From positions 11,321 to 75,320 of the forward strand of contig JAFDKF010000018.1 in the NCBI GenBank assembly GCA_019307135.1: a DNA stretch of 64,000 nt, in the 5' to 3' direction. The DNA comes from Deltaproteobacteria bacterium (GTDB lineage Bacteria; Desulfobacterota; Desulfobacteria; Desulfobacterales; C00003060). A program made the translations under genes and the position numbers. The notes under the pieces are model-generated. The model was not told the origin of the DNA and ran no database searches. It saw nothing but the letters and a program-made list of their open reading frames with translations. This document shows, piece after piece, positions 4,155-60,759 of this stretch. Within the stretch, counting starts at the first letter, position 1. Each line of letters starts with the position of its first letter.

Positions 4155-4390
4155 CAACCTGTGCGGTTAGGTGATTCCTAAGCCTTTCAGAATGACCGGG
4201 GTTCCCGTAGGGGCGGCCCGCCCTGGCGCGACAGAGATTGGACAATACCCAGAGGTGAAAAACCCGGTCTGGGCCAGGGGTTTACCCCGCCCGAATCGAT
4301 TTGGTGGGCGGCATAAAGCCGCCCCTACGACGTCTCCTTCATAACCATTAACTCATTGACAAAACACTGTAAATGCTAACCGCACAGGCT
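4155..4390. mobile_element. MITE, family B (terminal inverted repeats cCACCTGTGCGGTTAG), copy B1, carrying a nested mini-hairpin insertion
   Basis: The ends are caacctgtgcggttag and ctaaccgcacaggct. The core is the reverse complement of copy B2 (26594..26780) plus an extra ~67 bp (gcccgccctggcgcgac...cccggtctgggccagggg) inserted in the central GTAGGGGCGG hairpin. The flanking 9-mers are degenerate (ggaaagttg / caaagcttg). Confidence 0.7.
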
Positions 4391-4623
4391 CAAAGCTTGT
4401 GGACTCCTGGTTCCAACGCTCTGCGTTGGAACCCATTCCACCGGACGCTCTGCGTCCTCTCTCAAAGACGCAGAGTGCCACGCAAAGTCCCAATCTTTCG
4501 TAATAGTGTACCCCCTACTCCTTTTTCTGTCATTTCGACCCCTTTGCCTCTGTCATTTCGAGCGAAGCTTTGCGATACAGCAGGGCCACTGAATGACCCT
4601 GCCACATATCGCAAGGTATTCCG

Positions 4624-5313
4624 TTAGTGTTCCAGCTTCATGCCCCATCCTTCAAACATGAACAAAATGGCAAAGCCGTACCAGACGGTGTAAACCACGT
4701 AAAAAATCAAGGAGAAGGTGACCATGCCAATACGGTCATCGATTTTTTGAGGTTCGATCTTGTAGTAGTTATAGGACGTCTCCACGGCCTTTTTCCTGAC
4801 CGTAGTAACCATCTTGGCCTCTTTAAACTTCTTCTGCGTCTTTAAGTTCTTATCCATCGCCTTCAGTGCGTTCCACCAGTTAAAAAGGACCCGCTTTTCG
4901 TCGTAGCCGTACTTGCCGGAGACCGCTTGCCCATTGTTTCTATACATGTCCTCTGCATCGGCAAGACAGTTTTCCAGGATCTTGGCCAGGTCACCGCTAA
5001 CCTTCAACTCTGCACCTGACGTGCTTACGGAGGCACCGCCGCTCTTAAAAAGTGGAGCGGTCTGCCCGGCCTGCTTCTCGTCCGCCATTTTTAAGGTCAC
5101 ATCCACAGAGTTCCCCTTGAACTTGTCTTCGACCCCTTTCTTGACCTCTGGAATATAATAGGCCGAGTTCTTTGATATGGTGTTATACAACTCGTCTAAG
5201 TATTCCAGACCGTTTTTGCCCTTGAAAATAGGCGCGAACATGATGAACAGCACCACGGTAAACGTCACCATCATGCCAAGGCCGCCATAAAACTCTTTTT
5301 TTCCCTCAATCAT
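4624..5313 (-). CDS. Bitopic membrane protein of unknown family (third gene of the CBS/TSUP operon, copy 1)
   Basis: Track ORF of 229 aa with hydrophobic helices at the N and C termini and a ~150-aa K/E-rich soluble middle. It overlaps the upstream permease stop by ATGA. Its paralogue is 7770..8456. Confidence 0.7.
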   Translation of the reverse strand: MIEGKKEFYGGLGMMVTFTVVLFIMFAPIFKGKNGLEYLDELYNTISKNSAYYIPEVKKGVEDKFKGNSVDVTLKMADEKQAGQTAPLFKSGGASVSTSGAELKVSGDLAKILENCLADAEDMYRNNGQAVSGKYGYDEKRVLFNWWNALKAMDKNLKTQKKFKEAKMVTTVRKKAVETSYNYYKIEPQKIDDRIGMVTFSLIFYVVYTVWYGFAILFMFEGWGMKLEH

Positions 5314-6611
5314 GATTTCGCCTCCTCTCCCTTAAGGACCCTAAGATTCCTGAAGAACGTGGCAGTCACCCAAATCGCAAACCCGCCGATAATAATGAAA
5401 AAGGCATAGATTCCGATCTGCTCCAGGACGTAGCACACCGTTTTTGATATGGTAATGACCTCCATGTCCTGCAACTTGGCCGGCAGGGCAAAGAACCGGT
5501 TGACAAAACCGGCTATAATGGCCATGGCGTAAAAGCCACGGATCGTGACACCCTTCACCACCTTTGTGACCATTGCGCCGACCTGGATACCGAGCAAGGA
5601 TCCTAAGAGCATGCCCGTGGCCAGGGTGTAGAAGATAAACCCGTAGATGGCGTACTGGCCTATCGCGGCATAGCTTGCCGTGAAGATGATCTGGAAGATG
5701 TCAGTTCCCACCGTGGTCATGGAGGAAACCCCCAGGACATAGACGAATATGGGAAAGGTCACAAAACCGCCGCCAACCCCCATAATCGCAGCCAGAAACC
5801 CGACAAAGAAACCGGCGAGGACCAAAAACACCCATGAAATCCCGCGTCCACCAGGGGTAAAGTCAAAATCGAACTTGACCATCGGAGGAAGCTTCATGGA
5901 CTGAAGCTTTTTGGGCAGATTACCCATCTCAACCCCTTCTTCTTTTCCACCATGGCCACCTGCTTCTGGTTCTGCTGCTGCTCCTGCCGCCTTCCTAGCC
6001 CTGAGAAAGTCGGTCCCCGCGTAGATTCCCAAAAACCCCAACATGATCGAGTAGACAACCGTAATAAATGCATCACTCATCACAGGATTGATCTCATAGA
6101 TCAAGCGATTAATGTACCCGCCCACTGTCGCTCCTGTGATGGAGCCGATCAAGAAGGTCACGGCCAGGGGCACGGACACGTTTCCTAACTTCCGGTGGAT
6201 CACGCTCCCCATGATCGCCTTGGCAAAGATGTGAAACAGGTCCGTTCCGACGACCAGGATGCCTTTGATGCCTGCGCTCATCAGGGCAGGAGTAATAACG
6301 AACCCGCCACCCGCGCCGATGCAGCCTGTGATCAGGCCCGCCATCGCACCGATAAGAATGGATATGATAAAGATACCGGTACCGTAAAACGCCGGGCTGT
6401 ACGCCTTCTTGCCGCCCAGGAATTGCGGCATGGCCCCGGCAATCTCATCAGCAAAAGCGACACCCAGGATTATAATGGGAACGATCAACAACCCGAGTGC
6501 AATCAGCCGCTTGCGGTCCCGAAGTATGGTGTTTGAGTTCTCGATTTCCCATTTGGCAAAGGATCTTGCCCCCATCATCATAAATTCGCCCCACTGTTTA
6601 AAAAAACTCAT
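5310..6611 (-). CDS. Double-length TSUP (TauE/SafE, DUF81) family anion permease, copy 1
   Basis: Two TSUP-like halves carry GxGGG motifs (GCIGAGGGFVITPALM, IMGVGGGFVTFPIF). I place the start at ATG 6611 (MSFFKQWGEF) because it aligns with the paralogue start MNFFRQWYEF. The track ORF extends to 6671 through a TTG. Confidence 0.8.
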   Translation of the reverse strand: MSFFKQWGEFMMMGARSFAKWEIENSNTILRDRKRLIALGLLIVPIIILGVAFADEIAGAMPQFLGGKKAYSPAFYGTGIFIISILIGAMAGLITGCIGAGGGFVITPALMSAGIKGILVVGTDLFHIFAKAIMGSVIHRKLGNVSVPLAVTFLIGSITGATVGGYINRLIYEINPVMSDAFITVVYSIMLGFLGIYAGTDFLRARKAAGAAAEPEAGGHGGKEEGVEMGNLPKKLQSMKLPPMVKFDFDFTPGGRGISWVFLVLAGFFVGFLAAIMGVGGGFVTFPIFVYVLGVSSMTTVGTDIFQIIFTASYAAIGQYAIYGFIFYTLATGMLLGSLLGIQVGAMVTKVVKGVTIRGFYAMAIIAGFVNRFFALPAKLQDMEVITISKTVCYVLEQIGIYAFFIIIGGFAIWVTATFFRNLRVLKGEEAKS

Positions 6612-6726
6612 GGCAAATCTCTCCTTTTCTGTATAGTTTTTGTGTATAGACCCAGTATCGTGTAGCAGCAACCTCTACCCCCCCCCCGTTACATCTGTTC
6701 ACACCCCCTTTCCATGCTTCGCAATT

Positions 6727-6800
6727 AGTCGAGTGGTCGAGTGGGAAAATGGTCAAGTGGTTGACGACTCGACTACTCAACGACTCGACTACTCAACCAA
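6727..6800. repeat. Hairpin repeat, family I (CGAGTGGTCGAGTGG / CGACTCGACTACTCAAC arms), between the CBS and permease genes
   Basis: The inverted arms were read directly. The same element lies at the equivalent place in the second operon copy (9861..9935), and a related copy is at 42363..42443. Confidence 0.6.
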
Positions 6801-6817
6801 CTAGGGCGCAGCCCCTT

Positions 6818-7087
6818 CTACTCCACTATGATCCTCCGACGCTGCATAACAACGCCTCGCCTCCCTTTTGAGTTCAGATTCCCTTCCAATCCGACTTGCT
6901 TCAGGGCATCCTCAAGCGTGATCATGCCCAAAACCTCCTTTCCCCGGGTTACGGCAACCCGCTTCAGGTCATTCTTGAGCATGACCTCGAGGGCCTCCAT
7001 GATCCTGTCTTCAGGACCAACAGAGGGTTTCAGCCCAACCTCTTCCTGGATCGGTATGATGATCGCTTTAACAGAAAGCCTTTTCAT
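6818..7087 (-). CDS. Single-CBS-domain protein (first gene of the CBS/TSUP operon, copy 1)
   Basis: The protein MKRLSVKAIIIPI...VLGMITLEDALKQ fits one CBS motif. I place the start at ATG 7087. The track ORF extension to 7186 is a translation of the sigma-54 promoter (see the rejected items). Confidence 0.75.
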   Translation of the reverse strand: MKRLSVKAIIIPIQEEVGLKPSVGPEDRIMEALEVMLKNDLKRVAVTRGKEVLGMITLEDALKQVGLEGNLNSKGRRGVVMQRRRIIVE

Positions 7088-7114
7088 GCCGGTCAGCGTC
7101 CTGCAGTAAAAAGA

Positions 7115-7129
7115 GCAATGGGTATGCCA
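7115..7129 (-). promoter_or_regulatory. Sigma-54 (-24/-12) promoter P1
   Basis: The minus strand reads cTTGGCATacccaTTGCTc, with GG and GC separated by exactly 10 nt. It lies ~28 nt upstream of ATG 7087. Confidence 0.8.
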
Positions 7130-7252
7130 AGACACATGATGACGGGGAATTGGACCAACTAGAAGGAAATAAAGAGGATTATTCAAAAGTGGATGGGCCT
7201 TTGGCTGTGGCCCAGGATAGATGTCTGTCAGGATTTTTTACAGATTGTAAAA
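7130..7252 (-). promoter_or_regulatory. Upstream activating region shared with the locus at 21947..22070
   Basis: This region is colinear with 21947..22070 on the opposite strand. Conserved blocks include the 15-bp palindrome TTTACAatcTGTAAA (~115 bp upstream of -24), CTGACAGACATCT, TGGGCCAC and CTTTTGAATAAT. Confidence 0.6.
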
Positions 7253-7277
7253 GATGGGCGTGAATCGAATGAGGAAT

Positions 7278-7769: not shown

Positions 7770-8456
7770 TTAATGACTCAGCTTCATACCCCATCCTTCA
7801 AACATGAACATGATGGCAAAGCCGTACCACAGGGTGTAAACCACATAAAAGATCAAAGAGAAGATCACAATGCCAATCTTGTCACCGATTTTTTGGGGCT
7901 CGATCTTATAGTAGTTATAAGACGACTCCACAGCCTTTTTCACCACCATGGCAATGATCTTGGCCTCCTTGAACTTCTTCTGCTTCTTCAGGTCCTTATC
8001 CATGGTCTTGGATGCCTTCCACCAGTTATAAAGGACCCGCCTCTCATCATAGCCGTATTTGCCCTTAACCTCTTCCCCTTTGTTATGATACATACTATCT
8101 GCATCAGCAAGGCAGTTTGCCAGAATCTTGCCCAGGTCGCCGGTGACCTTCAACTCTGCCGACGATGTGGTTACCGAGGCGCCGCCCTTCTCAAAGAGGG
8201 GAGCAGTCTGCCTGGCCTGTGTCTCATCCGCCATCTTCAAGGTCACAGTTACGGAGTTCCCGACAAACTCGTCGGTCGCTTCCTTGACCTTTGGAATGTA
8301 GTAGGCCGAGCCCTTGGATATGGAGTTATACAGGCTGTCCAGGTATTCCAAACCGTTCTGGCCCTTGAAGACAGGTGAAAATACGATAATCAGGACCACG
8401 ATAAAAGCCGCCATCATGCCAACGCCGCCATAAAATTCTTTCTTATGCTCAATCAT
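7770..8456 (-). CDS. Bitopic membrane protein of unknown family (copy 2)
   Basis: Track ORF of 228 aa, colinear with 4624..5313, with the same ATGA overlap with the permease gene. Confidence 0.7.
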   Translation of the reverse strand: MIEHKKEFYGGVGMMAAFIVVLIIVFSPVFKGQNGLEYLDSLYNSISKGSAYYIPKVKEATDEFVGNSVTVTLKMADETQARQTAPLFEKGGASVTTSSAELKVTGDLGKILANCLADADSMYHNKGEEVKGKYGYDERRVLYNWWKASKTMDKDLKKQKKFKEAKIIAMVVKKAVESSYNYYKIEPQKIGDKIGIVIFSLIFYVVYTLWYGFAIMFMFEGWGMKLSH

Positions 8457-9748
8457 GCTGTCACCTCCCCCTTAAGTGTTTTGATATTAAAGAGGAACGT
8501 CCCGATTACCCAGACCCCAAACCCGGCGATTACAATGAAGAAGGCCCAGACGCCAATGGTGTCTAGAATATCACCCGCCTGTTTTGATATCGGAATGTAA
8601 CCCAAGGCGCCCAACTTGCCTGGCAGGGCAAAGGCACGATTGACAAAACCGGCCAACACAGCCATGGCATAGAATCCACGGATCGTGATCCCCTTCACGA
8701 CCTTTGTGGTCATGGCCCCGACCTGGATGCCCAGCAAGGACCCCAGGAGCATACCCATTGCCAGGGTATAGAAAATAAAGCCGTAGATGGCGTACTGGCT
8801 GATTGCGGCATATCCTGCCGTGAAGACGATCTGGAAGATGTCCGTTCCCACTGTGGTCATGGACGAAACCCCCAGGACATAAACAAAGATAGGGAAGGTC
8901 AGAAAACCGCCGCCAACCCCCATGATGCCTGCTGCCATCCCCACGAGGCAACCGGCCAAGACCAGAAAGATCCACGAAATGCCGCGACCACCGGGCGTAA
9001 AGTCATAATCGAATTTGACCATGGGAGGAATCTTCATGGCCTGAAGCTTTTTCGGGAGATTTCCCATCTCCGCCCCTTCTTCTTTTCCACCATGGGCCCC
9101 TGTATCAACGGCTCCACCTGCCGCGGCCTTTCTTGCCTTGAGGAAGTCCGTCATGGCGTAGATCCCCAGAAAACCCAACATGCCAGAGTAGACCGTCGTA
9201 ATAAAGGCATCACTGAGCACCGGATTGATCTCATAAAAAAACCGGTTGATCACCCCGCCGAGTGTCGCCCCTATAATGGCGCCGATCAAGAAGACCGCGG
9301 CCAGAGGCACAGAGACGTTTCCTAACTTCCTGTGGATCACGCTCCCCATGATCGCCTTGGCAAAAATGTGAAAAAGGTCCGTTCCAACCGCTAGAATACC
9401 CTTGATGCCTGCGCTCATCAGGGCAGGAGCGATCACGAACCCCCCGCCTGCGCCGATGCAGCCTGTGATGAGCCCGGCGCCCATGCCTATGGCGATGGAT
9501 ACGATAAAGATAAAGGTATTGTAAAACGCCGGGCTATACGCCTTCTTGCCACCCAGCAAGTCCGGCAGGACCCCGCTAATCGGCTCAGCAAAAGCGACAC
9601 CCACGATTATAATGGGAACAATCAACAAGCCGAGTGCGATTAGCCTCTTGCGGTCGCCAAGTATGGTCTTCGAGTTGTCAATTTCCCACCTGGCAAAGGC
9701 TTTTGTCCCCATCATCATAAACTCATACCACTGTCTAAAGAAATTCAT
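8453..9748 (-). CDS. Double-length TSUP (TauE/SafE) family permease, copy 2
   Basis: Track ORF of 431 aa, colinear with copy 1, with the same GxGGG motifs and the same Gly/Glu-rich inter-half linker. Confidence 0.8.
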   Translation of the reverse strand: MNFFRQWYEFMMMGTKAFARWEIDNSKTILGDRKRLIALGLLIVPIIIVGVAFAEPISGVLPDLLGGKKAYSPAFYNTFIFIVSIAIGMGAGLITGCIGAGGGFVIAPALMSAGIKGILAVGTDLFHIFAKAIMGSVIHRKLGNVSVPLAAVFLIGAIIGATLGGVINRFFYEINPVLSDAFITTVYSGMLGFLGIYAMTDFLKARKAAAGGAVDTGAHGGKEEGAEMGNLPKKLQAMKIPPMVKFDYDFTPGGRGISWIFLVLAGCLVGMAAGIMGVGGGFLTFPIFVYVLGVSSMTTVGTDIFQIVFTAGYAAISQYAIYGFIFYTLAMGMLLGSLLGIQVGAMTTKVVKGITIRGFYAMAVLAGFVNRAFALPGKLGALGYIPISKQAGDILDTIGVWAFFIVIAGFGVWVIGTFLFNIKTLKGEVTA

Positions 9749-9860
9749 GGCAAATCTCTCCTTTTCTGTATACGTTTGTGTACAGGCTCAATATCCTGTG
9801 GAAAAAATATCTCCCCTCCTCGTTACGTCTATTCACACCCCCTTTCTATGCTTCGCAATT

Positions 9861-9935
9861 AGTCGAGTGGTCGAGTGGGAAAATGGTCAAGTGGTTAACG
9901 ACTCGACCACTCAACACACTCGACTACTCGACCAA
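9861..9935. repeat. Hairpin repeat, family I (copy in operon 2)
   Basis: It has the same sequence and position as 6727..6800. Confidence 0.6.
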
Positions 9936-9957
9936 CTGGGGCCAAGCCCCTGATTTC

Positions 9958-10227
9958 CTATTCCACCACAATCCTCCGGCCGTGAATAATAACGCTTCGA
10001 CTCTCTTTTGACTTCAGATCCCCTTCCAATCCGACTTGCTTCAGGGCATCCTCAAGCGTGATCATGCCCAGAACCTCCTTTCCACTGCTTACGGCAATCC
10101 GCTTCAGGTCATTCTTCAGCATCACCTCGAGGGCCTCTGTGATCCTGTCTTCAGGACCAACAGAGGGTTTGAGCCCAACATCTTCTTTAATCGGTATGAT
10201 GATCTCTTCAACAGCAAGCCGCTTCAT
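9958..10227 (-). CDS. Single-CBS-domain protein, copy 2
   Basis: MKRLAVEEIIIPIKED... aligns with copy 1. I prefer ATG 10227, because the track start at 10254 is a GTG inside the terminus of the adjacent MITE. Confidence 0.75.
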   Translation of the reverse strand: MKRLAVEEIIIPIKEDVGLKPSVGPEDRITEALEVMLKNDLKRIAVSSGKEVLGMITLEDALKQVGLEGDLKSKESRSVIIHGRRIVVE

Positions 10228-10242
10228 GCCGGTCCTTTCAGT

Positions 10243-10440
10243 GTAGGCGTTCACAGGTTCAGAGGTTCAGGGTTCACGGTTCACCGTTCAGAAGTCAGAG
10301 ATCAGAAGTCAGAGATCAGAAGTCAGAGATCAGAAGTCAGAGATCAGAAGTCAGAGATCAGAAGTCAGAGATCAGAAGTCAGAGATCAGAATTCTATTTT
10401 TTTAACTGCCCCCTGAACCTCTGAACCCGTGAACGGTTAC
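10243..10440. mobile_element. Hairpin MITE, family A (arms built of GGTTCAG heptads, termini GTAACCGTTCACGGG-like), copy A1
   Basis: The left arm is gtaggcgttcacaggttcagaggttcagggttcac and the right arm is ctgaacctctgaacccgtgaacggttac. The core is seven exact tandem copies of cagaagtcagagat (10289..10386). Confidence 0.8.
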
Positions 10441-10462
10441 GGGAGCGTTGCGTCCGTCAAGG

Positions 10463-13297: not shown

Positions 13298-13438
13298 AGA
13301 GATCAGAAGTCAGAAGTCAGAGGTCAGAGGTCAGAGGTCAGAGATCAAAAGCCAGAAGCCAGACCTCCGACCTCTGATCTCTGATCTCTATTTTTTCAAC
13401 TGACCTCTATTCTTTTAACTGAACCCGTGAACGGTTAC
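13298..13438. mobile_element. Family A element, copy A2 (core and right arm only)
   Basis: It contains cagaagt/cagaggt heptad runs, ccagacctccgacctctgatctctg, and the terminus ctgaacccgtgaacggttac. It lies 26 nt upstream of the kinase start at 13272. Confidence 0.7.
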
Positions 13439-51328: not shown

Positions 51329-51336
51329 ACAAGCCC

Positions 51337-51666
51337 GTGAAAAAAAAGCGTTACCGAACATGCGAAGAACTGAGCGAGACGGTAGGGGCCAAAGAAGCCC
51401 GCAAGATAAGGGCGCGTCGTCAAAAACACGAGGGTGTCTGGTTCGGACTCGGCATGTTTGGCCTCGTGGGATGGTCGGTGGCCATCCCCACATTGGTAGG
51501 CATAGCATTAGGGATCTGGATAGATCTGAAATGGCCAGGCCGCTATTCGTGGACTCTTATGCTACTCATCATCGGCATCATGCTTGGTTGCCTGAATGCT
51601 TGGTTCTGGATTGCGCGTGAGCGAAACATGATTGGGGAGGACAAAGAGGAGCAGGGGTGTGGGTGA
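51337..51666 (+). CDS. atpQ: N-ATPase AtpQ (AtpI/ATPase_gene1-like small membrane protein)
   Basis: Track ORF of 109 aa with a basic N-terminus and two TM helices. It occupies the third position, as in N-ATPase operons. Confidence 0.7.
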   Translation: MKKKRYRTCEELSETVGAKEARKIRARRQKHEGVWFGLGMFGLVGWSVAIPTLVGIALGIWIDLKWPGRYSWTLMLLIIGIMLGCLNAWFWIARERNMIGEDKEEQGCG

Positions 51667-51979
51667 TCTCTTATCGCTTGTGCTGGCTCTTGCGGCAGGC
51701 ATCGGACTCGGGATGTTTTACTTCGGTGGCCTGTGGTTGACGGTCCGGCGGCTCCCCACAGTGCGATGGCCGGCCTTTTTGAGTCTGTTGAGTTTCTTTG
51801 CGCGCTTGGGGGTGGTTCTGTTTGGGTTTTATCTCGTCATGGGCGGTCACTGGGAACGACTTCTCGTTTGTCTGTTCGGTTTTCTAGCGATCCGGATCAT
51901 CCTTGTGCGTCTGTGGGGACCTGATAGAACCAGTCGCAGTAAAAGGATGGCTGAAGTTAAGGATTTTCGTCATTTCTAA
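51632..51979 (+). CDS. atpR: N-ATPase AtpR (membrane protein with conserved intramembrane Arg)
   Basis: The motif FYFGGLWLTVRRL is typical of AtpR. The real start is probably GTG 51659, which overlaps the atpQ stop. Confidence 0.7.
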   Translation: MGRTKRSRGVGDLLSLVLALAAGIGLGMFYFGGLWLTVRRLPTVRWPAFLSLLSFFARLGVVLFGFYLVMGGHWERLLVCLFGFLAIRIILVRLWGPDRTSRSKRMAEVKDFRHF

Positions 51980-51981
51980 TT

Positions 51982-52017
51982 TTAGGCACTTTAGCTCACT
52001 TTAGGCACTTTAGCTCA
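51982..52017. repeat. Tandem 18-mer x2 in the atpR-atpB spacer
   Basis: ttaggcactttagctcac is repeated twice without a gap. Confidence 0.7.
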
Positions 52018-52033
52018 CTCAAATCGGTTTCCT

Positions 52034-52750
52034 ATGCGTATAAGTCCTGATGCCGTAGTCTTCTTTCAATGGGGACCCATTTCCCTGAATGCAACGATCC
52101 TTTTTACCTGGTGCGTGATGGCGCTCATGGTCCTTGGCTCCTGGCTGGTAACCCGAAGGCTCTCGACAGAGACCAGGCTGTCTCGATGGCAGAACCTCAT
52201 GGAAGTTCTGGTGACCGGTATAAGAGATGAGATCCGCGAGATCAGTGGCCAGGTTCCAGGCCGATACTTGCCTTTTGTGGGTACGCTCTTTCTATTCATT
52301 GCGGTGTCAAATCTTTTGAGCATCGTTCCTGGCTATGAGCCACCCACGGGCTCTCTCTCAACCACAGCAGCACTGGCTGGGTGTGTCTTTGTGGCGGTTC
52401 CCCTATACGGCATTGCCGAGAATGGTCTCTCCTACTTCGGGCAGTATATCAAGCCTTCGGTGTTCATGTTGCCGTTCAATATCATGGGAGAGTTATCGCG
52501 CACCCTGGCACTGGCCGTTCGACTTTTTGGAAACGTCATGAGCGGCACTATGATCGTTGCCATCCTGCTTGGCCTTGCACCTCTTATCTTTCCCGTTGTC
52601 ATGCAGGCCTTGGGGCTCTTAACCGGAATGATCCAGGCGTATATTTTTGCAATCCTGGCCATGGTATATATCGCTGCCGCGACTCGCGCCCACCGCCAGG
52701 AAGGACAAGCCAACCAGCAAGCTAAGAAAGGAGATCTGTCAGATGGATAA
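52034..52750 (+). CDS. atpB: N-type F-ATPase a subunit
   Basis: Track ORF of 238 aa, polytopic, with the essential Arg context LAVRLFGNVMSG. Confidence 0.85.
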   Translation: MRISPDAVVFFQWGPISLNATILFTWCVMALMVLGSWLVTRRLSTETRLSRWQNLMEVLVTGIRDEIREISGQVPGRYLPFVGTLFLFIAVSNLLSIVPGYEPPTGSLSTTAALAGCVFVAVPLYGIAENGLSYFGQYIKPSVFMLPFNIMGELSRTLALAVRLFGNVMSGTMIVAILLGLAPLIFPVVMQALGLLTGMIQAYIFAILAMVYIAAATRAHRQEGQANQQAKKGDLSDG

Positions 52751-53021
52751 CATTGGTCTCATTGGTACGATATCCGTAATTGCCTCGGGACTGACCATGG
52801 CCATAGGTTCGATCGCTCCCGCACTGGGAGAGGCGCGGGCATTGGCCCAGGCGTTGAGCTCCATTGCTCAACAGCCGGATGAAGCCAATACCATTACACG
52901 AACCCTCTTTGTGGGTTTGGCCATGGTGGAGTCTACCGCCATTTACTGCTTTGTGGTGGCCATGATTCTGATCTTTGCCAACCCCTTCTGGGAACACGTG
53001 GTATCTAAGGTCCGTCCGTAA
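52743..53021 (+). CDS. atpE: N-type F-ATPase c subunit
   Basis: ATG 52743 starts MDNIGLIG and overlaps the atpB stop (ATGGATAA). The protein is a two-helix hairpin with the loop QQPDE, helix-2 motif VESTAIY and helix-1 motif ALGEA. Confidence 0.85.
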   Translation: MDNIGLIGTISVIASGLTMAIGSIAPALGEARALAQALSSIAQQPDEANTITRTLFVGLAMVESTAIYCFVVAMILIFANPFWEHVVSKVRP

Positions 53022-53033
53022 ATACGCCAAATT

Positions 53034-53085
53034 TCCTTCCCCCAACTCCTATTCTTAGGAGGGAGTTGGGGGAAGGAGTTTATCT
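53034..53085 (+). terminator. Strong hairpin (16-bp stem) plus a U-rich tail directly after atpE; terminator, attenuator or mRNA stabiliser
   Basis: tccttcccccaactcc pairs with ggagttgggggaagga and is followed by gtttatct. Confidence 0.4.
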
Positions 53086-53234
53086 ATAGTGTCCATCCAG
53101 AAATGGTAGATTTTGTCCCGAGACAAGGCCGCACAAAGGTTTCTACCGCAGATGTAGCAGCGCTACTTCGAGGATAGGAACCTGCGGAGAACGCTGTATC
53201 GGGGCAAAAGATGCCGTTTCTGGATGGACACTAT
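53086..53234. mobile_element. MITE with ~20-bp terminal inverted repeats (ATAGTGTCCATCCAGAAA) in the atpE-atpF spacer
   Basis: The left end is atagtgtccatccagaaatgg and the right end is ccgtttctggatggacactat. I could not define a clear target duplication. Confidence 0.7.
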
Positions 53235-53254
53235 CTAAGGCTGGAGGATGGTCC

Positions 53255-54031
53255 ATGCTCATTGATTGGTTTACAGTGGCCGCCCAGGTCATCAATTTCC
53301 TGGTGCTTGTCTACTTGCTCAAGCGTTTTCTTTATGGTCCAATTATCAAGGCCATGGACAAGCGAGAGAAAAGGATCGCTTTCCGCCTGGAAGAGGGCCA
53401 GAAGAAGAAGGAGGAAGCTGAGCGGGAGGTGGAACGCTATCTGAAAAAAAACAGGGACCTTGATAACCGGCGTGAAGCCTTGCTATCCGAGATCAAGGGA
53501 GAAGCGGACGCTCGCCGAAAAGAACTTGTGAGCGAGGCACGCAACGAGGTTGAGGTGATCAGGACTAACTGGTATGAGGCGATCCAGCGGGAGAAAGATG
53601 CCTTCCTTCAGGACCTTCGCCAGCGTGCTGGCAAGCAGACTTGCGCCATTGCCCGCCGGATCCTCAGGGACCTGGCAAATGTGGATCTTGAACATCACAT
53701 CATCCGTGTGTTCATCGAACGTCTCCGGAATCTGGGCAAGGAGGAACTGGGCGCTCTCAACGAATCCATTCTGAAATCAGGACGAAGAATCAACCTGCGG
53801 AGCGCTTTTGAAATCCCGCAGGAAATGGCCCGGCAAATTGCGGAAGTCTTGCAGAACCACGGGGCCGATCCTGTTGATTTGCAGCTTGAGATTTCATCGG
53901 ACGTTATATGTGGCATTGAATTGAACGTCCATGGGCGCAAGATTGCGTGGAGCCTGGAGGACTATCTGGAGACCCTGGAAGAAGCGTTGGCCGAAGCGCT
54001 TGAGGGAAAGAGAATTGAATCAACGGATTGA
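53255..54031 (+). CDS. atpF: N-type F-ATPase b subunit
   Basis: Track ORF of 258 aa with ggagga upstream, one N-terminal TM helix, and then a long charged coiled coil. Confidence 0.8.
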   Translation: MLIDWFTVAAQVINFLVLVYLLKRFLYGPIIKAMDKREKRIAFRLEEGQKKKEEAEREVERYLKKNRDLDNRREALLSEIKGEADARRKELVSEARNEVEVIRTNWYEAIQREKDAFLQDLRQRAGKQTCAIARRILRDLANVDLEHHIIRVFIERLRNLGKEELGALNESILKSGRRINLRSAFEIPQEMARQIAEVLQNHGADPVDLQLEISSDVICGIELNVHGRKIAWSLEDYLETLEEALAEALEGKRIESTD

Positions 54032-54042
54032 GGGATTGGGGG

Positions 54043-54436
54043 TCCGCAGATTACGCAGATTACATGGATTACATGGAATTGTTGGCATCCTTCATTCCTC
54101 GGTTTACACTTTTCAAGAATGCGGGCGCCAAGAGATAAATTCTTTTGTTCGTACTTTTTGGTGTCAGGTGTCAGGTGTCAGGAGCAAGAAACGCAAGATC
54201 TGTACTGTTCTCAAGGCGTAAGCCGCAAACCCGAACACTGAAACCAGGCACCAGGTGTCAGGTGTCAGGTGTCAGGTGTCAGAAACTGAAAAAGCAAGAC
54301 CTGTACTGTTCTCAAGGCGTAAGCCGCAAACCTGAACACTGAAACCTGAACACTGGTCAATAGGTGTAAACTACAAAATGAAGGATGCCGAATTGTTCTT
54401 TAATAATCTGCGAGAATCGGTGAAATCTGTGGATGG
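54043..54436. mobile_element. Composite ~390-bp insertion with ~60-bp imperfect terminal inverted repeats in the atpF-atpA spacer
   Basis: The arms are cgcagattac...ggcatccttcattcctcggtttacac and ggtgtaaactacaaaatgaaggatgcc...aataatctgcg. The interior holds two ~100-bp tandem units with caggtgt heptads and gaacactgaaacct. The flanking ~18-mers are ggattgagggattggggg and ggattgagaaattgggga. Confidence 0.7.
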
Positions 54437-54461
54437 GATTGAGAAATTGGGGAATTAGGGA

Positions 54462-55991
54462 ATGGAAGAAAATGCAGTACTGAAAACCTTTCTGGATGAT
54501 ACGTTCACGGCTTTTGATGGCGTGTTGGAGGGCTACAGGGCTGAGCTGAAGGGCCGGGAGGTCGGCACGATAAACTATATTGGCCAAGGGATCGCACGGT
54601 TAGAAGGATTGCCTGGCGTTAAATCGGAGGAGCTTGTCCGCTTTCACGGAGACGTATTTGGAATGGTTTTCAACGTGGATCCTTCTGAGGTAGGAGTCAT
54701 TCTGCTGGGCGAGAGCCAAATGCTGAAGGCTGGCACCGAGGCACGACGAACGGGACGGGTCCTGGACGTGCCGGTGGGTGACGCACTGATTGGCCGGGTT
54801 TTGGACCCCATGGGGCGTCCCCTGGACGACCTTGGCCCGGTGCGCACTTCAGAGCGACGTCCTGTCGAACGGGAAGCTCCTGAAATCATGGATCGCGATC
54901 CTGTCACCGTTCCCCTTCAGACAGGGCTCAAGGTGGTGGACGCCTTGATTCCCATTGGCAGGGGCCAGCGAGAGCTCATCCTTGGCGACCGGCAAACTGG
55001 CAAGACCGCTATCGCGCTGGATACAATGATCAACCAGCGAGATAAAGATGTACTTTGTGTCTATTGTGCTATCGGGCAGCGAAGCTCGTCTGTGGCAAAG
55101 TTCATCGAGGACCTCCGGAGGTACGGTGCCATGGGCTACTGTATCGTCATGGTAGCTGGGGGAGAAAATCCCCCTGGCTTGCAGTTCATTGCGCCATACG
55201 CAGCGACCACCATGGCAGAGTATTTTATGGAACAGGGACGGGACGTATTGATCGTGTATGACGATCTGACGCGCCATGCCCAGGCATATCGGGAGCTTTC
55301 ACTCCTGCTGCGTCGCCCTCCCGGCAGGGAAGCTTTTCCGGGCGACATATTCTATATCCATTCCCGACTCCTTGAGCGGGCCACCCATCTCCGAGAAGAA
55401 CTGGGGGGTGGCTCTTTGAGCGCCATGCCGATCGTGGAGACAGAGGCTCAAAACATATCGGCATATATTCCAACAAATATCATCTCCATCACTGATGGTC
55501 AGATCTATCTTGCCCCGGATCTATTTCAAAAAGGGGTGCTCCCGGCCGTGGACGTTGGCAAATCCGTGTCCAGGGTTGGGGGAAAAACACAGCTTGCCGC
55601 ATATCGCACCGTTGCCGGCGATTTGCGCCTTTCCTACTCGCAGTTTGAGGAACTGGAGACATTCTCCCGTTTTGGGACGCGTCTCGATGAGGAAACGCGC
55701 AAAACGCTGGATCATGGCCGCCGCGTCCGAGAGATTCTTAAACAGCCACAATATCAACCCATGTCGGTTTCCGATCAGATTGCTGTTCTTCTAACTGTGA
55801 CAGAGGGCGTCTTTGATCAGCTTCCACCGGATCAGATCGTGGGGGCCGAGCAGGTGGTACGCAAGGCTGTTACCAAAGAGCTGCCCGATCTTTGCACACG
55901 AATCCAATCCGGGGAGAAACTCAACGAGATGGATCGGGATGCCATTGTGGGCACCGCTGGGAAAGCGATCACCAACCATGCAAACGATTGA
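54462..55991 (+). CDS. atpA: N-type F-ATPase alpha subunit
   Basis: Track ORF of 509 aa with Walker A GDRQTGKT. Confidence 0.9.
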
Positions 55992-56865
55992 GTCACTGAA
56001 ACGCAAGATTAAGAGTGCGGAAGACTTGCACTCTGTGGTGAAGACAATGAAGGCCCTTGCTGCTGTGAGTATCCGGCAGTACGAGAAGGCCGTAGAATCC
56101 CTTGCCGAATACAACCGAACGGTTGAGATGGGTTTTCAGATCATTCTTAAACAGAAACCCCGGGGGGTCTCAATGGCCCAACCTGTGCTGAACGGACGCC
56201 TTGGCGCCGTGGTCTTTGGTTCGGACCAGGGCATGGTGGGACAGTTTAATGAAGTGATAGCCCGCTATGCGGCCAATAAAATGGATAAACTCCGGATCAG
56301 GGAAGAAAACCGTGCGGTGCTGGCCGTGGGTCTGCGAGTTTTTGCACGCCTTGAAGAGGCCGGACACCCGGTTGAAGGCCACGTTTCTCTGCCGGACTCC
56401 CTGGCTGCCATTACGCCCATCGTGCAGGACATGGTGCTGAAAATAGAGGCGTGGCGCTCCGAGCGTGAAATCGATCAGTTTGTCCTTTTTTATAACAGAC
56501 CGATCTCGGGTGCCTCCTATCGCCCCAACACCCTCTATCTTCTGCCGGTGGACCTGGGGTGGTTTCAAGACCTGGAACACAAACCATGGCCCTGCCGCTG
56601 CCTCCCTTTCTTTACCATGGATTGGAACAAGCTTTTTTCCTCATTGATTCGAGAATATCTCTTTGTATCCCTCTACCGCGCCTTTGCCGAGTCACTGGCC
56701 AGCGAAAATGCCAGCCGGCTCGCATCGATGCAGGCCGCTGAGAGAAATATCGAAGATCGTTTGGAAGAACTCAAAACTCAATTCCACCAACAGCGGCAGA
56801 GCTCCATTGACGAAGAACTCTTTGACCTGGTGGCTGGCTTCGAGGCGGTCACACAGGCAGGATAG
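55978..56865 (+). CDS. atpG: N-type F-ATPase gamma subunit
   Basis: The in-frame ATG at 55978 ([29 protein letters not shown]) overlaps the atpA end by 14 nt. The track ORF start at 55813 lies inside atpA. Confidence 0.85.
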
Positions 56866-56946
56866 TATTTCTTTTTGTTCCGAAATACTGTAGAGAGGCT
56901 GTATTAGCGAGGACTTTGGCGTTCTTGAGCACTGAGAGAGGATGGC

Positions 56947-58017
56947 ATGATGGTTACTTTATACATTACCTCCATTGAGAGGTACACCGGCAAGGATTTA
57001 ATTACCATTGGGTTAATGGACCGGCTGAGACGAGATGGCTTTGAAGTCGGCTATTTCAAGCCTATGGGGCATTTTCCCGTAAAGGTGGAAAACATTGTCA
57101 CCGATAAAGACGCTTGGCTCATTCACAGGCTCTTTGAGATGAAGGATGCCATTGAACTCATATGCCCTGTCATCATCACCCAGGACCTGATCATGCAAAA
57201 CTATGAGAAAGATATCACAGGGTTAGGGAAAAAAATAGAAGGGGCCTTTAAGAAAATATCGGAGCAAAAGGATATTGTGGTAGTAAGCTGTGACACCAAT
57301 CTCAGCGATGGGAGCTGCCTGGGGCTGTCAGGCTCACAACTCATCAAACTATTGAACGCCTATACCCTGTTCGTGGAGCGGTATGAAACTCATTCTTCTA
57401 TCGACTTTGTCTTGGAAATCAAGAAGGTCCTGGGCGAGCCTATGATAGGCGTCGTATTCAATAAGATTGAAGCCGTGGATCTGGAGGAGCTCAAGGAATT
57501 TGTTACACCTTTCCTGCATCGGAGGGATGTGGAGGTATTCGGCTGCTTGCCCAGGGATACGTTGGTAGGGTCTATTGAGGTAAGGGAACTTGTGGACCAT
57601 CTGGGTGCTGATGTGGTGTGTGGCAAGGATAGGCTCGATCCCTTGGTGGAAAACTTCCTGGTGGGTGCCATGCAGGTAGACAAGTTCATAACGTACTTGC
57701 TGAAGAGCCCTTCCTCGGCGGTTATTGTGGGTGGTGATCGCACAGAGATCCAGCTTGTTGCCATAGAAAATGAAGTGAGATGCCTTATCCTATCCGGAAA
57801 CCTCTACCCCAATGAAATCATCATGGCAAGGGCTGAGGCAAAGGGTGTGCCTATTCTGGTAGTCAGAAATGATACCTACACAATAGCAAAAAATGTGGAG
57901 GCCATGGTTGGAAAGTTTAGCCTGGGGAAAAGAGAAAAGATAGCCCACGGGATCAAGCTGGTAGATGAGACCTTCGATTTTAGGAAGCTTTACAAGCGCC
58001 TCAACCTTGAGCCCTAA
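56947..58017 (+). CDS. Phosphotransacetylase-N-terminal-like protein (BioD/CobQ-like P-loop-fold domain plus DRTGG domain)
   Basis: Track ORF of 356 aa. The N-terminus is LYITSIERYTGKDLITIGL...GYFKPMG. A DRTGG-like block (VIVGGDRTEIQLVA) is present. Confidence 0.6.
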   Translation: MMVTLYITSIERYTGKDLITIGLMDRLRRDGFEVGYFKPMGHFPVKVENIVTDKDAWLIHRLFEMKDAIELICPVIITQDLIMQNYEKDITGLGKKIEGAFKKISEQKDIVVVSCDTNLSDGSCLGLSGSQLIKLLNAYTLFVERYETHSSIDFVLEIKKVLGEPMIGVVFNKIEAVDLEELKEFVTPFLHRRDVEVFGCLPRDTLVGSIEVRELVDHLGADVVCGKDRLDPLVENFLVGAMQVDKFITYLLKSPSSAVIVGGDRTEIQLVAIENEVRCLILSGNLYPNEIIMARAEAKGVPILVVRNDTYTIAKNVEAMVGKFSLGKREKIAHGIKLVDETFDFRKLYKRLNLEP

Positions 58018-58025
58018 GTTTAGCT

Positions 58026-58181
58026 GTAAGCGTTCAGAGGTTTAGAGTTCACCGTTCAGGGTTACCTTTCTTTCGTTGACCTTGCTCGTAGGCTAGCAAA
58101 TACTTGATGAAACCTCGAATCAACGGTTTAGATTTTTGGTAAACCCTGAACCCTTGAACCTCTGAACCCGTGAACGGTTAC
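58026..58181. mobile_element. Family A MITE, copy A11, with a perfect 8-bp target duplication
   Basis: It is flanked by gtttagct (58018..58025 and 58182..58189). The arms are gtaagcgttcagaggtttagagttcaccgttcagg and cctgaacccttgaacctctgaacccgtgaacggttac. Confidence 0.85.
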
Positions 58182-58206
58182 GTTTAGCTTTTGCCCAAGG
58201 GGTGGA

Positions 58207-58231
58207 GTTGTAGAAATTCCGAGACGTCTAG
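58207..58231 (+). promoter_or_regulatory. Conserved 25-nt leader motif (copy 2 of 3)
   Basis: gttgtagaaattccgagacgtctag ends 16 nt before ATG 58248. Confidence 0.45.
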
Positions 58232-58247
58232 TTAAGGGAGGGCATCC

Positions 58248-58946
58248 ATGTTAGTAAAAGGCTGGATGACTGATGATGTCATAACTGCGGGTGAAGACAC
58301 CACCATGATGAAGGCTTTTATCATCATGAAGGAGAAAAAGATCCGCTCCTTGCCAGTTGTGAACAAAAAGGGTAGACTGTTAGGGATCGTTACCGACAGG
58401 GACTTGAGAGACGCTTCACCATCCAAGGCAACGACCCTGGACGTGTATGAACTGAATTACCTGATCTCTACCATTAAGATCAAGGATCTTATGACCAAAA
58501 ATCTGGTGTTTGTCAGGCCCGATGAGACAGTGGAATTCGCTGCAATCTTGATGCTCGAAAACAAGATCTCATCACTTCCTGTCATCAATGACAAGGATTC
58601 CTTGATCGGCATTATCACGCAAACCGACATTTTCAAGGTGCTGATCAATATTACAGGGGTTTACACCGGGGGCATTCAGTTTGCGTTCAGTCTGGAGGAT
58701 CGCCCGGGTTCGATCAGAGAAGTAACCGATGTGATCCGGTCCTATGGTGGGCGAGTGGCGAGCCTCTTATCTACACGCGAAACCGCTGAAGAGGGTTGCC
58801 ATAATGTTTACATACGCACCAGCCCCTTGCCAGAAGACAAGCTGAGAGGTTTGGTCAAAGAACTGGAAGAGAAGTTTGTGGTCCTTTACACGTCCAAGGA
58901 CTTACTCGGCGAGGTTGAGAGTCGTCGCATTCGAATTCCGGGATAG
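58248..58946 (+). CDS. CBS-pair plus ACT domain protein (AcuB-like)
   Basis: Track ORF of 232 aa with two CBS motifs (LLGIVTDRDL and LIGIITQTDIF) and a C-terminal ACT-like region. Confidence 0.75.
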   Translation: MLVKGWMTDDVITAGEDTTMMKAFIIMKEKKIRSLPVVNKKGRLLGIVTDRDLRDASPSKATTLDVYELNYLISTIKIKDLMTKNLVFVRPDETVEFAAILMLENKISSLPVINDKDSLIGIITQTDIFKVLINITGVYTGGIQFAFSLEDRPGSIREVTDVIRSYGGRVASLLSTRETAEEGCHNVYIRTSPLPEDKLRGLVKELEEKFVVLYTSKDLLGEVESRRIRIPG

Positions 58947-58982
58947 CCCATTCGCTCCGCTTCCTTAAAATCCCCCCTTTAA

Positions 58983-59096
58983 CCTAAAGTGATCGGTTCA
59001 AGGTTCAGGGTTCAAGGTTCAAGGTTCAGGGTTCAGGGTTCAGGGTTCAGGGTTCAAGGTTCAAAGGTTCAAAGGTTATAGTCTACTTTACAAGGG
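58983..59096. mobile_element. Family C element, copy C4 (left part with an expanded GGTTCAG/GGTTCAA heptad run)
   Basis: cctaaagtgatcggttc is followed by about 11 heptads and then aaaggttatagtctac, as in the left part of C1. Confidence 0.65.
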
Positions 59097-59149
59097 GTGT
59101 GAATCACAGCTGTTGGCAATGAGAAAATCCATGTCCGTCTGGAAACGTT

Positions 59150-59208
59150 GTAGGGGCGGCTTTACGCCGCCCACCAAATCGATTCGGGCGGGGTAAACCC
59201 GCCCCTAC
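59150..59208. repeat. GTAGGGGCGG double-hairpin unit (the core of family B elements) without the B termini
   Basis: gtaggggcggctttacgccgcccaccaaatcgattcgggcggggtaaacccgcccctac matches the B1/B2 interior. Confidence 0.65.
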
Positions 59209-59324
59209 GGGAACTGGAATATTGGGTTATTTTTTTCTGCTTCTCACTCCCATTATTCCAATATTCCAACATTCCATTTTCATGCCACAGAAAACTGTTG
59301 CTGAAAGATAAATAATTACAGCGA

Positions 59325-59349
59325 GTTGTAGAAACTCCGAGAGGTTGAA
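59325..59349 (+). promoter_or_regulatory. Conserved 25-nt leader motif (copy 3 of 3)
   Basis: gttgtagaaactccgagaggttgaa ends 17 nt before ATG 59367. Confidence 0.45.
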
Positions 59350-59366
59350 TTAGGGTATGAGTCGTC

Positions 59367-60629
59367 ATGGTAGTCGATAAAAAGTATATATCGACCAAAT
59401 TTAGCCACACCAAGCTTAAAAGGAGGCATAAGGAGCTTGCCGTCCTGTATGACATTAGCAGCGACCTGACGAGCTCTCTTGGCCTTACAGAGGTTTTGGA
59501 TAGAGCGATCCTGAAAGTTCTGGAACACTTTAAGGTAGATACTGTCAGGATTTATTTAATGGATCAAACCGAGCAGTGCCTTGAACTCGTTGCCTATAAA
59601 GGGATTGCAAAGAACCAGGTGAAGGAGTTACGCAAAATCCGTATAAGTGAGGGCTTTTCAGGCAAAGCGGCTCGAACCAAAAGCTTTATCGCTCAGAAGG
59701 TTGCGGACCTGGAAAACAAGGAAAGAGCAGCCCTTCTGCAAAGGAAGGGATTCAAAGTTGTCATATGTGTGCCTCTCATCTTAAGGGACAAAGTGGTAGG
59801 CGTCATGAATCTGGGTTCAAAACGGATGATTTCACTAACTGAAGCAAAGATTGATCTGTTAGTCGCCATAGGAAGCCAGATCGCCATTGCAATCAACGTA
59901 GCCAGACTTTATGAGGATATCCGGAAAAAAGCAGAAGAGATCAGGAAGACAAAAGAGGAGTTGGAATTGTTTGCCTATACGATCTCACACGATCTCAAGA
60001 ATCCGGCTATCGGCGTCTCGGGGTTTGCCAGATTACTCGCTGAAAAATATGAACATAGCCTGAACGAAAAAGGGAAAAGATACTGCAATCAAATCAGGAA
60101 GGCAGCCGAACAGATCGAGATATTCACTCAAGACATCAATGAGTACATCAAGTCCAGGAGAGTCTCTTTCAACATCAAAAAGACCAATATCAAAAAGATC
60201 ATAGGGCACATCAGGAATGAAGTGTTACATGTTTTGAAGGAGCGGAATATAAAATGGTCGGAACCCGACACCATTCCCCAGGTCATGGCAGACCAGTTGG
60301 CCATAACCCGAGTTTTTAGAAACTTGATCGATAACGCGCTGAAACACGCCGGAGAAAATCTTACCAAGATTGCCATAGGCTATGACGAGGACAAGGACTT
60401 CCATATATTTTCGTTTAGCAATGACGGTGTGGCTATGAAAAAGAAGAATTCCGAGGTGATCTTTCAAATGTTCCAAAAACTTCCAGCATCGGAGCAAACA
60501 GATGGCTCGGGCCTGGGTTTAACCATTGTGAAAGAAATCGTGGAAGCCCACAAGGGCAAAGTCTGGTGTGAATCCGGGCCCAAAAAGGGTACAACCTTTT
60601 ACGTAGCTATTTCAAAGGACCTCGGATAA
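59367..60629 (+). CDS. GAF-domain sensor histidine kinase
   Basis: Track ORF of 420 aa with a GAF-like N-half and the motifs HDLKNPAIGVSGF, LIDNALKHA and GSGLGLT. Confidence 0.85.
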   Translation: MVVDKKYISTKFSHTKLKRRHKELAVLYDISSDLTSSLGLTEVLDRAILKVLEHFKVDTVRIYLMDQTEQCLELVAYKGIAKNQVKELRKIRISEGFSGKAARTKSFIAQKVADLENKERAALLQRKGFKVVICVPLILRDKVVGVMNLGSKRMISLTEAKIDLLVAIGSQIAIAINVARLYEDIRKKAEEIRKTKEELELFAYTISHDLKNPAIGVSGFARLLAEKYEHSLNEKGKRYCNQIRKAAEQIEIFTQDINEYIKSRRVSFNIKKTNIKKIIGHIRNEVLHVLKERNIKWSEPDTIPQVMADQLAITRVFRNLIDNALKHAGENLTKIAIGYDEDKDFHIFSFSNDGVAMKKKNSEVIFQMFQKLPASEQTDGSGLGLTIVKEIVEAHKGKVWCESGPKKGTTFYVAISKDLG

Positions 60630-60650
60630 TCTTCTGGGGGGAAGTTTGGG

Positions 60651-60759
60651 GTAAGTTCTCAAAAAGTTCGGGTAAGACCATTTCTCGTAGGGGCGGGTTT
60701 ATCCCGCCCGTAAGAGCTTTGCGCCGCAATGAACACAGGCGGGATAAACCCGCCCCTAC
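60651..60759. repeat. H-type terminus followed by a GTAGGGGCGGG hairpin unit
   Basis: gtaagttctcaaaaagttcggg is followed by gtaggggcgggtttatcccgccc...ggcgggataaacccgcccctac. Confidence 0.55.

Follow-up and report, generated by a model that had tools for sequence, protein, structure and literature searches.

What are the hairpin repeats with a seven-nucleotide period that recur between the genes of an assembled Deltaproteobacteria genome, and how do they spread? We address this question for a 64,000-nt stretch of contig JAFDKF010000018.1 (the whole stretch is called the window here), in which a preliminary description made from the sequence had noted copies of two repeat families, A and C, and related heptad-armed hairpins. 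[quoted passage not shown] Very probably, at least three non-autonomous MITE families are moved in trans, with heptads that vary through slippage and recombination and, for family A, an IS66-like partner.

The periodicity is specific to seven nucleotides. The motif GGTTCAGGGTTCA, allowing at most one mismatch, has 36 matches in the window where 0.11 are expected, and self-similarity at lag 7 picks out 37 segments covering 1913 nt, compared with 0-1 segments for each of lags 4-6 and 9-13. Tandem Repeats Finder (TRF) reports arrays of period 7, 14 or 21 at all sites listed in the preliminary description, with heptad units GGTTCAG, TCAGAAG, AGAGGTC and CAGGTGT. Hence, the proposal that the arms are built from 7-nt units is borne out, and so is the reported difference in copy number of a 14-mer, which TRF finds ×7.4 at 10288-10391 (copy A1) and ×2.4 at 33433-33465 (copy A7). 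Two of the broader statements need correction. Non-coding DNA amounts to 13,244 of the 64,000 nt (20.7%), and 4,469 nt (34%) of this is intra-window repeat, so that calling the intergenic space saturated was an overstatement. The single superfamily proposed separates into families A, C and G, which differ in termini and TSD and have a heptad-armed architecture in common. As an explanation of the heptads, assembly artefact was ruled out: the same elements are present in independent JGI, ENA and NCBI assemblies.

Family A has the left end GTAACCGTTCACGGGTTCA and the right end ...TGAACCTGTGAACGCCTAC, the latter in degenerate form ...CTGAACCTGTGAACGC(C/T)TAC, also written ...CTGAACGGTGAACTCTGAACCTGTGAACGC(C/T)TAC. 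The TIR is formed by GTAACCGTTCACGGGTTCA and the reverse complement of the right end, GTA(A/G)GCGTTCACAGGTTCA, also written GTA(A/G)GCGTTCACAGGTTCAGAGTTCACCGTTCAG; in short form the ends are GTAACCGTTCAC.../...GTGAACGC(C/T)TAC. They are slightly but consistently asymmetric (GTAACCGTTCACGGG versus GTAGGCGTTCACAGG), and both run on into units with a GTTCA core, spaced 7-8 nt apart. There are 2-5 such units per end, with a mode of 4 (125 ends), and up to 13 in window copy A4 and 14 in locus L042. The form GTAAGCGTTCA marks the end at 58026 and, as reverse complement, the one at 26023; L006, L009, L028, L056 and others have it too, and the opposite end is GTAACCG. Within the window subfamily, the right arm keeps a single register as TCTGATC/TCTGACT gives way to TCTGAAC and then to GGTGAAC, and the left arm changes from GGTTCAG to AGGTCAG/AGATCAG; the inner arrays may be diverged, amplified copies of the terminal unit.

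To define complete copies, inward-facing A ends were paired in the window and in 60 species of metagenome-assembled genomes (MAGs), which gave 49 elements of 64-348 nt. At offset 0, the 8 nt flanking the two ends agree at 8/8 in 18 of the 49 and at 7/8 in 10 more (28/49 at 7/8 or better). With the right flank slid by 1-3 nt either way (six offsets), 8/8 was reached in 1 of 294 comparisons, which excludes chance matches as the origin of the flanking direct repeats. The targets of family A are AT-rich and the duplication is 8 bp. In the window, exact 8-bp TSDs abut the termini of A4 (21699-21932, reverse strand; AAAACGGG at 21691-21698 and 21933-21940) and A11 (58026-58181, reverse strand; GTTTAGCT at 58018-58025 and 58182-58189). 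Both copies are complete; A4 carries its 13 GTTCA units at one end, and A11 runs from GTAAGCG... to ...GGTTAC.

Family C is 93-371 nt long and non-coding, with ends CCTAAAGTGATCGGTTC... and ...GAACCGCTCAACC(C/T)AGG (reverse complement of the right end, CCTGGGTTGAGCGGTTC), in short form CCTAAAGTGATCGG.../...CCCAGG; the starts are CCTAAAG... versus CCTGGG/CCTAGG.... Its TSDs are 5 bp and AT-rich (TTTAG, AATTA, TTTAA-type). They are exact in two of three window copies, namely C2 (35813-35958; TTTAG at 35808-35812 and 35959-35963) and C3 (37037-37203; AATTA at 37032-37036 and 37204-37208), both complete and on the forward strand. TSDs had also been claimed for A6 and C1. Neither is clean: C1 is flanked by TTATA/TTTTA (3/5), the flanks of A6 agree at 5/8 only, and the 10-nt repeat GTAGAAAAAT read as its TSD sits 1 nt and 8 nt off the element ends, which is non-canonical. 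Family G is the third MITE family. Its copy at 54084-54389 (no strand assigned) has GGCATCC-type termini, a TIR GGCATCCTTCATT...AATGAAGGATGCC with GGCATCCTTCATT at both ends, a 101-nt ×1.9 tandem of a CAGGTGT/CTGAACA heptad unit and an 8-bp TSD GAATTGTT at 54076-54083 and 54390-54397. A second copy, in L200, has the exact 8-bp TSD CTCTGAAT, and the TSD matches over copies are 8/8, 8/8 and 6/8. Given their different termini and duplications (GTAA with 8 bp, CC with 5 bp and GGCATCC with 8 bp), A, C and G presumably use different transposases.

Sister-strain contigs, retrieved by exact-protein look-ups, supply the insertion polymorphism on which the preliminary description had made its claim of mobility depend. 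L207, L208, L209 and L210 are 96-99% identical to window positions 48389-62947, and L211 is 93-98% identical to 26819-36249; they contain clean empty sites for A11 and G (both in L207) and for C2 (in L211). For A11, L207 reads GAGCCCTAA-GTTTAGCT-TTTG and the window GTTTAGCT[A11]GTTTAGCT (in longer context, GAGCCCTAAGTTTAGCTTTTG versus ...TAAGTTTAGCT[58026-58181]GTTTAGCTTTTG). For G, L207 has GGAATTGTTCTTTAAT in place of GAATTGTT[54084-54389]GAATTGTT (longer context, ATGGAATTGTTCTTTAAT versus GAATTGTT[54084-54389]GAATTGTTCTTTAAT), and for C2, L211 has GACTTTAGAGCAGC in place of TTTAG[C2]TTTAG (longer context, GAGACTTTAGAGCAGCTTGTCAGACAC versus TTTAG[35813-35958]TTTAGAGCCGCTTGTCAGACAC). L207 also has heptad hairpins of its own, at 935-1190 and 3710-4048, that have no counterpart in the window. 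From these empty sites and strain-specific hairpins it follows that mobility is recent and ongoing in the sampled population. A metagenome scan with the alpha subunit of the N-type ATPase gave only 63-70% relatives, too distant for empty sites, and an empty site for C4 in the spacer between the CBS and histidine kinase genes was undefinable, the 88-98% relatives being too diverged there.

Heptad number, which the preliminary description had proposed to compare between strains, differs between orthologous copies. The C4 site holds (GGTTCAG/A)×11.6 in the window, a complete C element of ~93 nt with (GGTTCAC)×4 in L207 and ~30 units in L002. L001 has 4 heptads (28 nt) fewer in the array at 54236-54263 and differs by one array unit in A10, and L002 lacks the inner 67 nt of A11. 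Interiors are replaced at fixed sites as well. In L207, A10 is represented by a minimal form of 51 nt with a different interior, and the orthologue of A7 in L211 (8241-8417) has an identical site and termini around an interior GATTGATGATTGA/CAATCGACAATC, compared with a heptad module in the window. Overall, the same A ends frame ~16 interior types: one with 19 copies, one with 11, four with 2-3 copies each and ten that occur once, a number of the last being minimal forms with little or no interior. Copy A9 (43208-43388, reverse strand) has a degenerate A end GGAGGCGTTGACAGG on one side, a C end TCTAAAGTGATCGGTTCC on the other and no TSD. Its end sequences bear out the earlier reading of A9 as a chimera that links the two families, and it may have formed by recombination between heptad arrays.

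Which transposases move these elements can be approached through their ends. For family A, a transposase of the IS66 family is the most likely mobiliser. The termini of family A start GTAAGCG or GTAAC, its inverted repeats are 20-30 bp and its target duplication is 8 bp; IS66 elements have inverted repeats of 20-30 bp that start GTAAGCG, and 8-bp direct repeats (PMC11946415). ISDge4 has the TIR GTAACTGCTCAGCA and 8-bp direct repeats (PMC12898284), and an annotated IS66 element of Bradyrhizobium (L204) reads GTAAGCGCTGTTCAGCGG... / ...GAACGACGCTTAC (ending GCTTAC) with TCGAGAAG flanking both sides. However, family A is without tnpA/B/C, its two ends are unlike each other, and they run into 2-14 GTTCA units, which are absent from the Bradyrhizobium element that we checked. 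Family C resembles the IS1380 family (ISEcp1/ISEc9) in having ends that start CCTA and 5-bp AT-rich duplications; the left inverted repeat of ISEcp1 is CCTAGATTCTACGT, with 5-bp AT-rich direct repeats (PMC6061673), and direct repeats in the IS1380 family are 4-5 bp (PMC12116815). The rest of the family C repeat (GTGATCGGTTCAAGGTTCA) is like the family A heptads and not like ISEcp1, and family C is non-coding. In the scheme that we propose, a transposase encoded elsewhere in the genome would move the MITEs in trans by a cut- or copy-and-paste route. The heptad arms would be a tandem multiplication of a motif already present in the terminal repeats; slipped-strand mispairing would lengthen, shorten and diversify them. 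They would also give homology for recombination between copies, which could lead to interior swaps, nesting and A/C chimeras.

The search for such partners was negative throughout. As had been stated for the 64-kb window, there is no transposase in it: Pfam scans of its 50 open reading frames (ORFs) gave no transposase, integrase or repetitive extragenic palindrome (REP)-associated tyrosine transposase (RAYT). The same scans hold for an IS1380-type transposase in the window, no search aimed at IS1380 having been made. The ORFs next to A ends cluster only into kinase and regulator families, and solo ends enclose only ordinary genes. Heptad MITE repeats are where MAG contigs often break off, and the autonomous copies are for this reason probably unassembled.

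Several points weigh against the scheme as a whole. The IS66 proteins TnpA/B/C of Bradyrhizobium and E. albertii have no tblastn match in the window or in ~200 loci (~1.9 Mb); the window holds no autonomous partner among its 50 ORFs (Pfam); TIR pairs 1-3.5 kb apart include none with a matching TSD (pairs of 1.4-3.3 kb were seen, without TSD); and no transposase-like ORF recurs beside solo ends. We infer the IS66 and IS1380 assignments from 4-7 terminal bases plus the length of the TSD. The sharing of GTTCA-type heptads across families with different termini and TSDs is unexplained. In 8 of 10 copies the GTAACC-first strand gives the more stable fold, its arm mismatches being mostly G:T, and this asymmetry could hint at strand-specific selection. 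The alternative is a few inherited events, and the asymmetry counts for little because arrays amplify a few ancestral changes. Lastly, contigs L001, L002 and L203, whose source is the window's sample or a sister sample, show no substitutions relative to the window, their differences all being indels (at 49300-49317, 23267-23287, 23530, 23798-23825, 27716-27782 and 58077-58143, two of them exactly 67 nt). These indels reflect either true structural heterogeneity or the assembler, and some of the between-assembly ones may be assembly artefacts, a 67-nt deletion in L203 breaking a PHO4 gene, and the sizes of arrays that exceed the read length are unreliable.

The heptads common to all three families admit a bolder reading, to which we give a small but real chance. 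They could be a clade-specific functional "currency" of multimerised binding sites, recognised by a domain of a transposase or by a nucleic-acid-binding protein of the host and adopted by MITE families with different transposases (IS66-like, IS1380-like and a third), with interiors exchanged as cassettes between the conserved ends and heptads. If true, the elements would be more than decaying deletion derivatives of insertion sequences, and would form a platform carried across at least 60 Desulfobacterota species.

A reading that we hold to be unlikely takes the arrays as functional cis-elements, iterated binding sites of a host RNA- or DNA-binding protein, which the MITEs would merely spread and which would rewire expression. 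GTTCA/TCAG-type heptads in three families with different ends would suit this explanation, as would the conserved modal number of GTTCA units at A ends, the several copies that end 10-50 nt upstream of start codons and the G:T-versus-A:C asymmetry between strands in folding energy. A precedent exists in the TAACTGA repeats of Beggiatoaceae, cyanobacteria and Bacteroidetes, intergenic tandem heptamers of variable number and patchy spread for which a post-transcriptional role has been proposed (PMC4679880); their reverse complement TCAGTTA has a TCAG core in common with TCAGAAG/TCAGAGA/TCAGGGT. However, the TAACTGA arrays run as direct repeats immediately before start codons, without TIR or TSD (PMC4679880), whereas the arrays described here are inverted pairs within transposons, of mixed orientation and of another heptad sequence, and their placement relative to start codons is inconsistent. 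In co-directional spacers, 8 elements are in sense and 5 in antisense orientation to the genes. Copy number differs several-fold between near-identical strains, and whole elements are missing at orthologous sites in sister strains whose genes are intact. Promoter- and terminator-like sites do not exceed those in shuffled sequence.

The stability of the hairpins raises the further idea that the elements are structured non-coding RNA genes, or terminators or attenuators, under selection for RNA structure. Folding energies were computed with RNA parameters, and z-scores from mononucleotide shuffles. Most A copies form strong hairpins (A6 -97.7 kcal/mol, z -14.8; A10 -93.8; A7 -67.6), which upholds for most copies the claim that each element folds; A3 gives no fold, and the long array of A1 is one-sided. 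Such stable folds with strongly negative z-scores, and the G:U pairs that make the GTAACC-first strand the stabler one, speak for this idea. We nevertheless regard this as highly improbable. No Rfam covariance model reaches its gathering score on either strand of the whole window, the orientation is unbiased, the interiors are unrelated among copies with the same ends and are swapped at orthologous sites, and a terminator scan is unenriched and does not single out the elements. Taken together, the lack of orientation bias, of an Rfam match and of a terminator or promoter signal argues against an RNA or regulatory role, and the elements appear to have no host function.

Equally improbable is that the elements are REP or REPIN (REP doublet) palindromes spread by a RAYT, a Y1 HUH transposase, through single-strand hairpin intermediates: ends that begin GTAG/GTAA like REP heads, long hairpins and true REP-like GC-rich doublets in the window are set against exact 8- or 5-bp TSDs and clean empty sites for A, C and G, which indicate DDE-type staggered-cut insertion and not insertion of the IS200/IS605 or RAYT type, and against a window without a Y1 transposase domain (Pfam). 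In their general form the elements do recall the REPIN/REP-BIME (bacterial interspersed mosaic element)-RAYT systems (PMC3116915, PMC3333891), being short intergenic hairpins with a GTAG-like head, high copy number and doublets. They differ in making target duplications (A, C and G) and in their variable interiors, and only the separate GTAGGGGCGG doublets fit REPIN. These GC-rich inverted doublets, GTAGGGGCGG...CCGCCCCTAC, lie at 4207-4328, 59150-59208 and 60687-60759 (also 26657-26666 and 41253-41262) and look like REP/REPIN pairs, a type of element distinct from heptad MITEs. L207, L196 and L199 lack the 60687-60759 pair in the orthologous spacer, and the window has no RAYT.

How widespread are the trans-mobilised MITEs that we favour, and have they been described before? 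A scan for the 19-nt A end in one genome per GTDB species found at least 112 stretches, distributed over 60 assemblies; these belong predominantly to Desulfobacterales, Desulfobacteraceae, Desulfatiglandales and Syntrophobacterales. The remaining carriers are unclassified "Deltaproteobacteria" or Thermodesulfobacteriota MAGs and a few short contigs in unrelated bins, which are probably binning errors. Neither of the two A ends has a match in 2.9 M viral contigs, and two element types gave no blastn match to plasmids. Searching the literature for the motif strings returned unrelated primer matches only, and no paper on IS66-derived MITEs was found there. The earlier impression that the architecture matches no described family is thus upheld within Rfam, the literature, plasmids and viral contigs, with ISfinder, Repbase and MITE databases outside that scope. 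MITEs with and without internal minisatellites are already known, as are heptamer arrays. A report on a Porphyromonas gingivalis MITE with an internal minisatellite (PMC4596501) describes, likewise, a bacterial MITE with a variable tandem repeat; the difference from that account is that here the heptad comes from the terminal repeat, complementary arrays occupy both arms and several families are involved. The novelty lies in how several traits come together: on either arm the ends continue into iterated heptads, one design is common to three families that differ in termini and in TSD length, interiors are exchanged like cassettes, and the elements range across at least 60 species in a single phylum. 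The elements are an unusual-looking but familiar kind of selfish DNA.

These elements account for an unusually large, hypervariable intergenic space (~21% non-coding) in abundant uncultured bacteria of the sulfate-reducer type, for the fragmentation of such MAGs and for false gene predictions, among them a 109-aa "ORF" in L002 that consists of GGTTCAG units. Three MITE families with one repeat architecture, arrays that change between near-identical strains and interiors replaced at fixed sites make up a natural system that is useful for studying the evolution of MITE ends and whether iterated end motifs raise mobilisation. Empty and filled sites together with array lengths can serve as strain markers in metagenomes.

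Motifs are present at all 11 A sites and 4 C sites that had been listed, although A8 is only an array fragment and C4 is one-ended. Seven A copies are complete (A1, A3, A4, A6, A7, A10 and A11). A1 (10243-10440, reverse strand) has its one-sided array as (TCAGAAGTCAGAGA)×7.4 and no TSD, and A3 (19331-19405, reverse strand) is a 75-nt minimal copy with both termini and heptads only, without hairpin or TSD. A4 holds a nested hairpin insert GCCGACTTCGCC...CGACGGCTGA, which L095 and L032 carry at the same internal position. The best hairpin is that of A6 (25862-26023, forward strand); A7 lies at 33362-33477 (forward strand), and A10 (49367-49543, reverse strand) contains an inner heptad module. 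A2 and A5 are one-ended: A2 (13298-13438, reverse strand) has only a GTAACC-type terminus, at 13438, and an inner AGAGGTC/TCTGAYC hairpin module, and A5 (24415-24500, forward strand) has a GTAACC-type terminus and inner module without a right end. A5 lies within a duplicated hsp20 upstream region (24410-24708 ~ 41133-41887). A8 (41178-41217, forward strand), an (AGAGGTC)×5 array, is a paralogue of the A5 region in this same duplication and was rejected as an independent insertion.

Among the C copies, all on the forward strand, C1 (28547-28917) is complete and contains, besides a hairpin of CAGGTGT/CTGAACA heptads, CCCGCCCTGGCGCGAC...GGTCTGGGCCAGGG elements nested within it, and C4 (58983-59077) consists of a family C left end and its ×11.6 array, the right end being lost. 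The CCCGCCCTGGCGCGAC...GGTCTGGGCCAGGG element is ~60 nt long and always nested in other repeats, namely a REP loop (4217-4279), C1, C2 and heptad arrays (in L017 and L207), its further positions being 28757-28819 with 28860-28873, 35840-35902, 36682-36744 and L207:3806-3868. At A9, an ORF for a VTT-domain membrane protein (42393-43340; the domain ends at residue 222) runs ~130 nt into the element, which may supply its C-terminus and stop codon.

The genes of the window (Pfam, 50 ORFs) encode sigma-54 activators, many histidine kinases and response regulators, TauE exporters, complex-I-like subunits and an N-type ATPase operon with AtpR and ATPase_gene1. MITEs and other repeats lie upstream of this operon (49554-56865) and in its internal spacers (49367-49543, 53024-53230 and 54084-54389), and the L207 operon has different insertions, at 3710-4048 and 5100-5460. 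An 18-mer, GTTGTAGAAAYTCCGAGA, occurs at 42466-42483, 58207-58224 and 59325-59342 (three copies versus 0.08 expected), at least two of them at a distance of 25-40 nt upstream of a start codon. Relatives L196, L201 and L207 conserve it before their CBS and kinase genes, and it is probably a promoter or operator and not part of a MITE. Compared with the window at 62171, L207:13539-14311 has an extra HTH_3 gene beside the PIN-domain gene, which lies at 62233-62631 in the window. This extra gene probably encodes the antitoxin in a toxin-antitoxin pair, and in the window it is missing or replaced.

Short heptamer arrays also occur outside the MITEs, at 3549-3607 and 20220-20252 (ATTGAGA ×5.7 then AATAACC ×2.9, and GGGAGTA ×4.7). 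In the otherwise identical contig L001, positions 920-1215 hold an extra hairpin element of ~290 nt compared with window 45629-45647, where the two genes that it separates overlap. The arms of this element consist of AAATCCGAAATTCGAA-type units, a 35-nt tandem duplication lies inside it, and the end of the upstream gene is altered. A gene pair with a TauE exporter is segmentally duplicated (4633-7253 versus 7779-10442), each copy being followed by a hairpin whose arms are 8-nt units, GTCGAGTG/CGACTCGA (6728-6797 and 9862-9934), and 42362-42439 holds a similar octamer hairpin. Hairpins with periodic arms thus occur with periods other than 7 as well.

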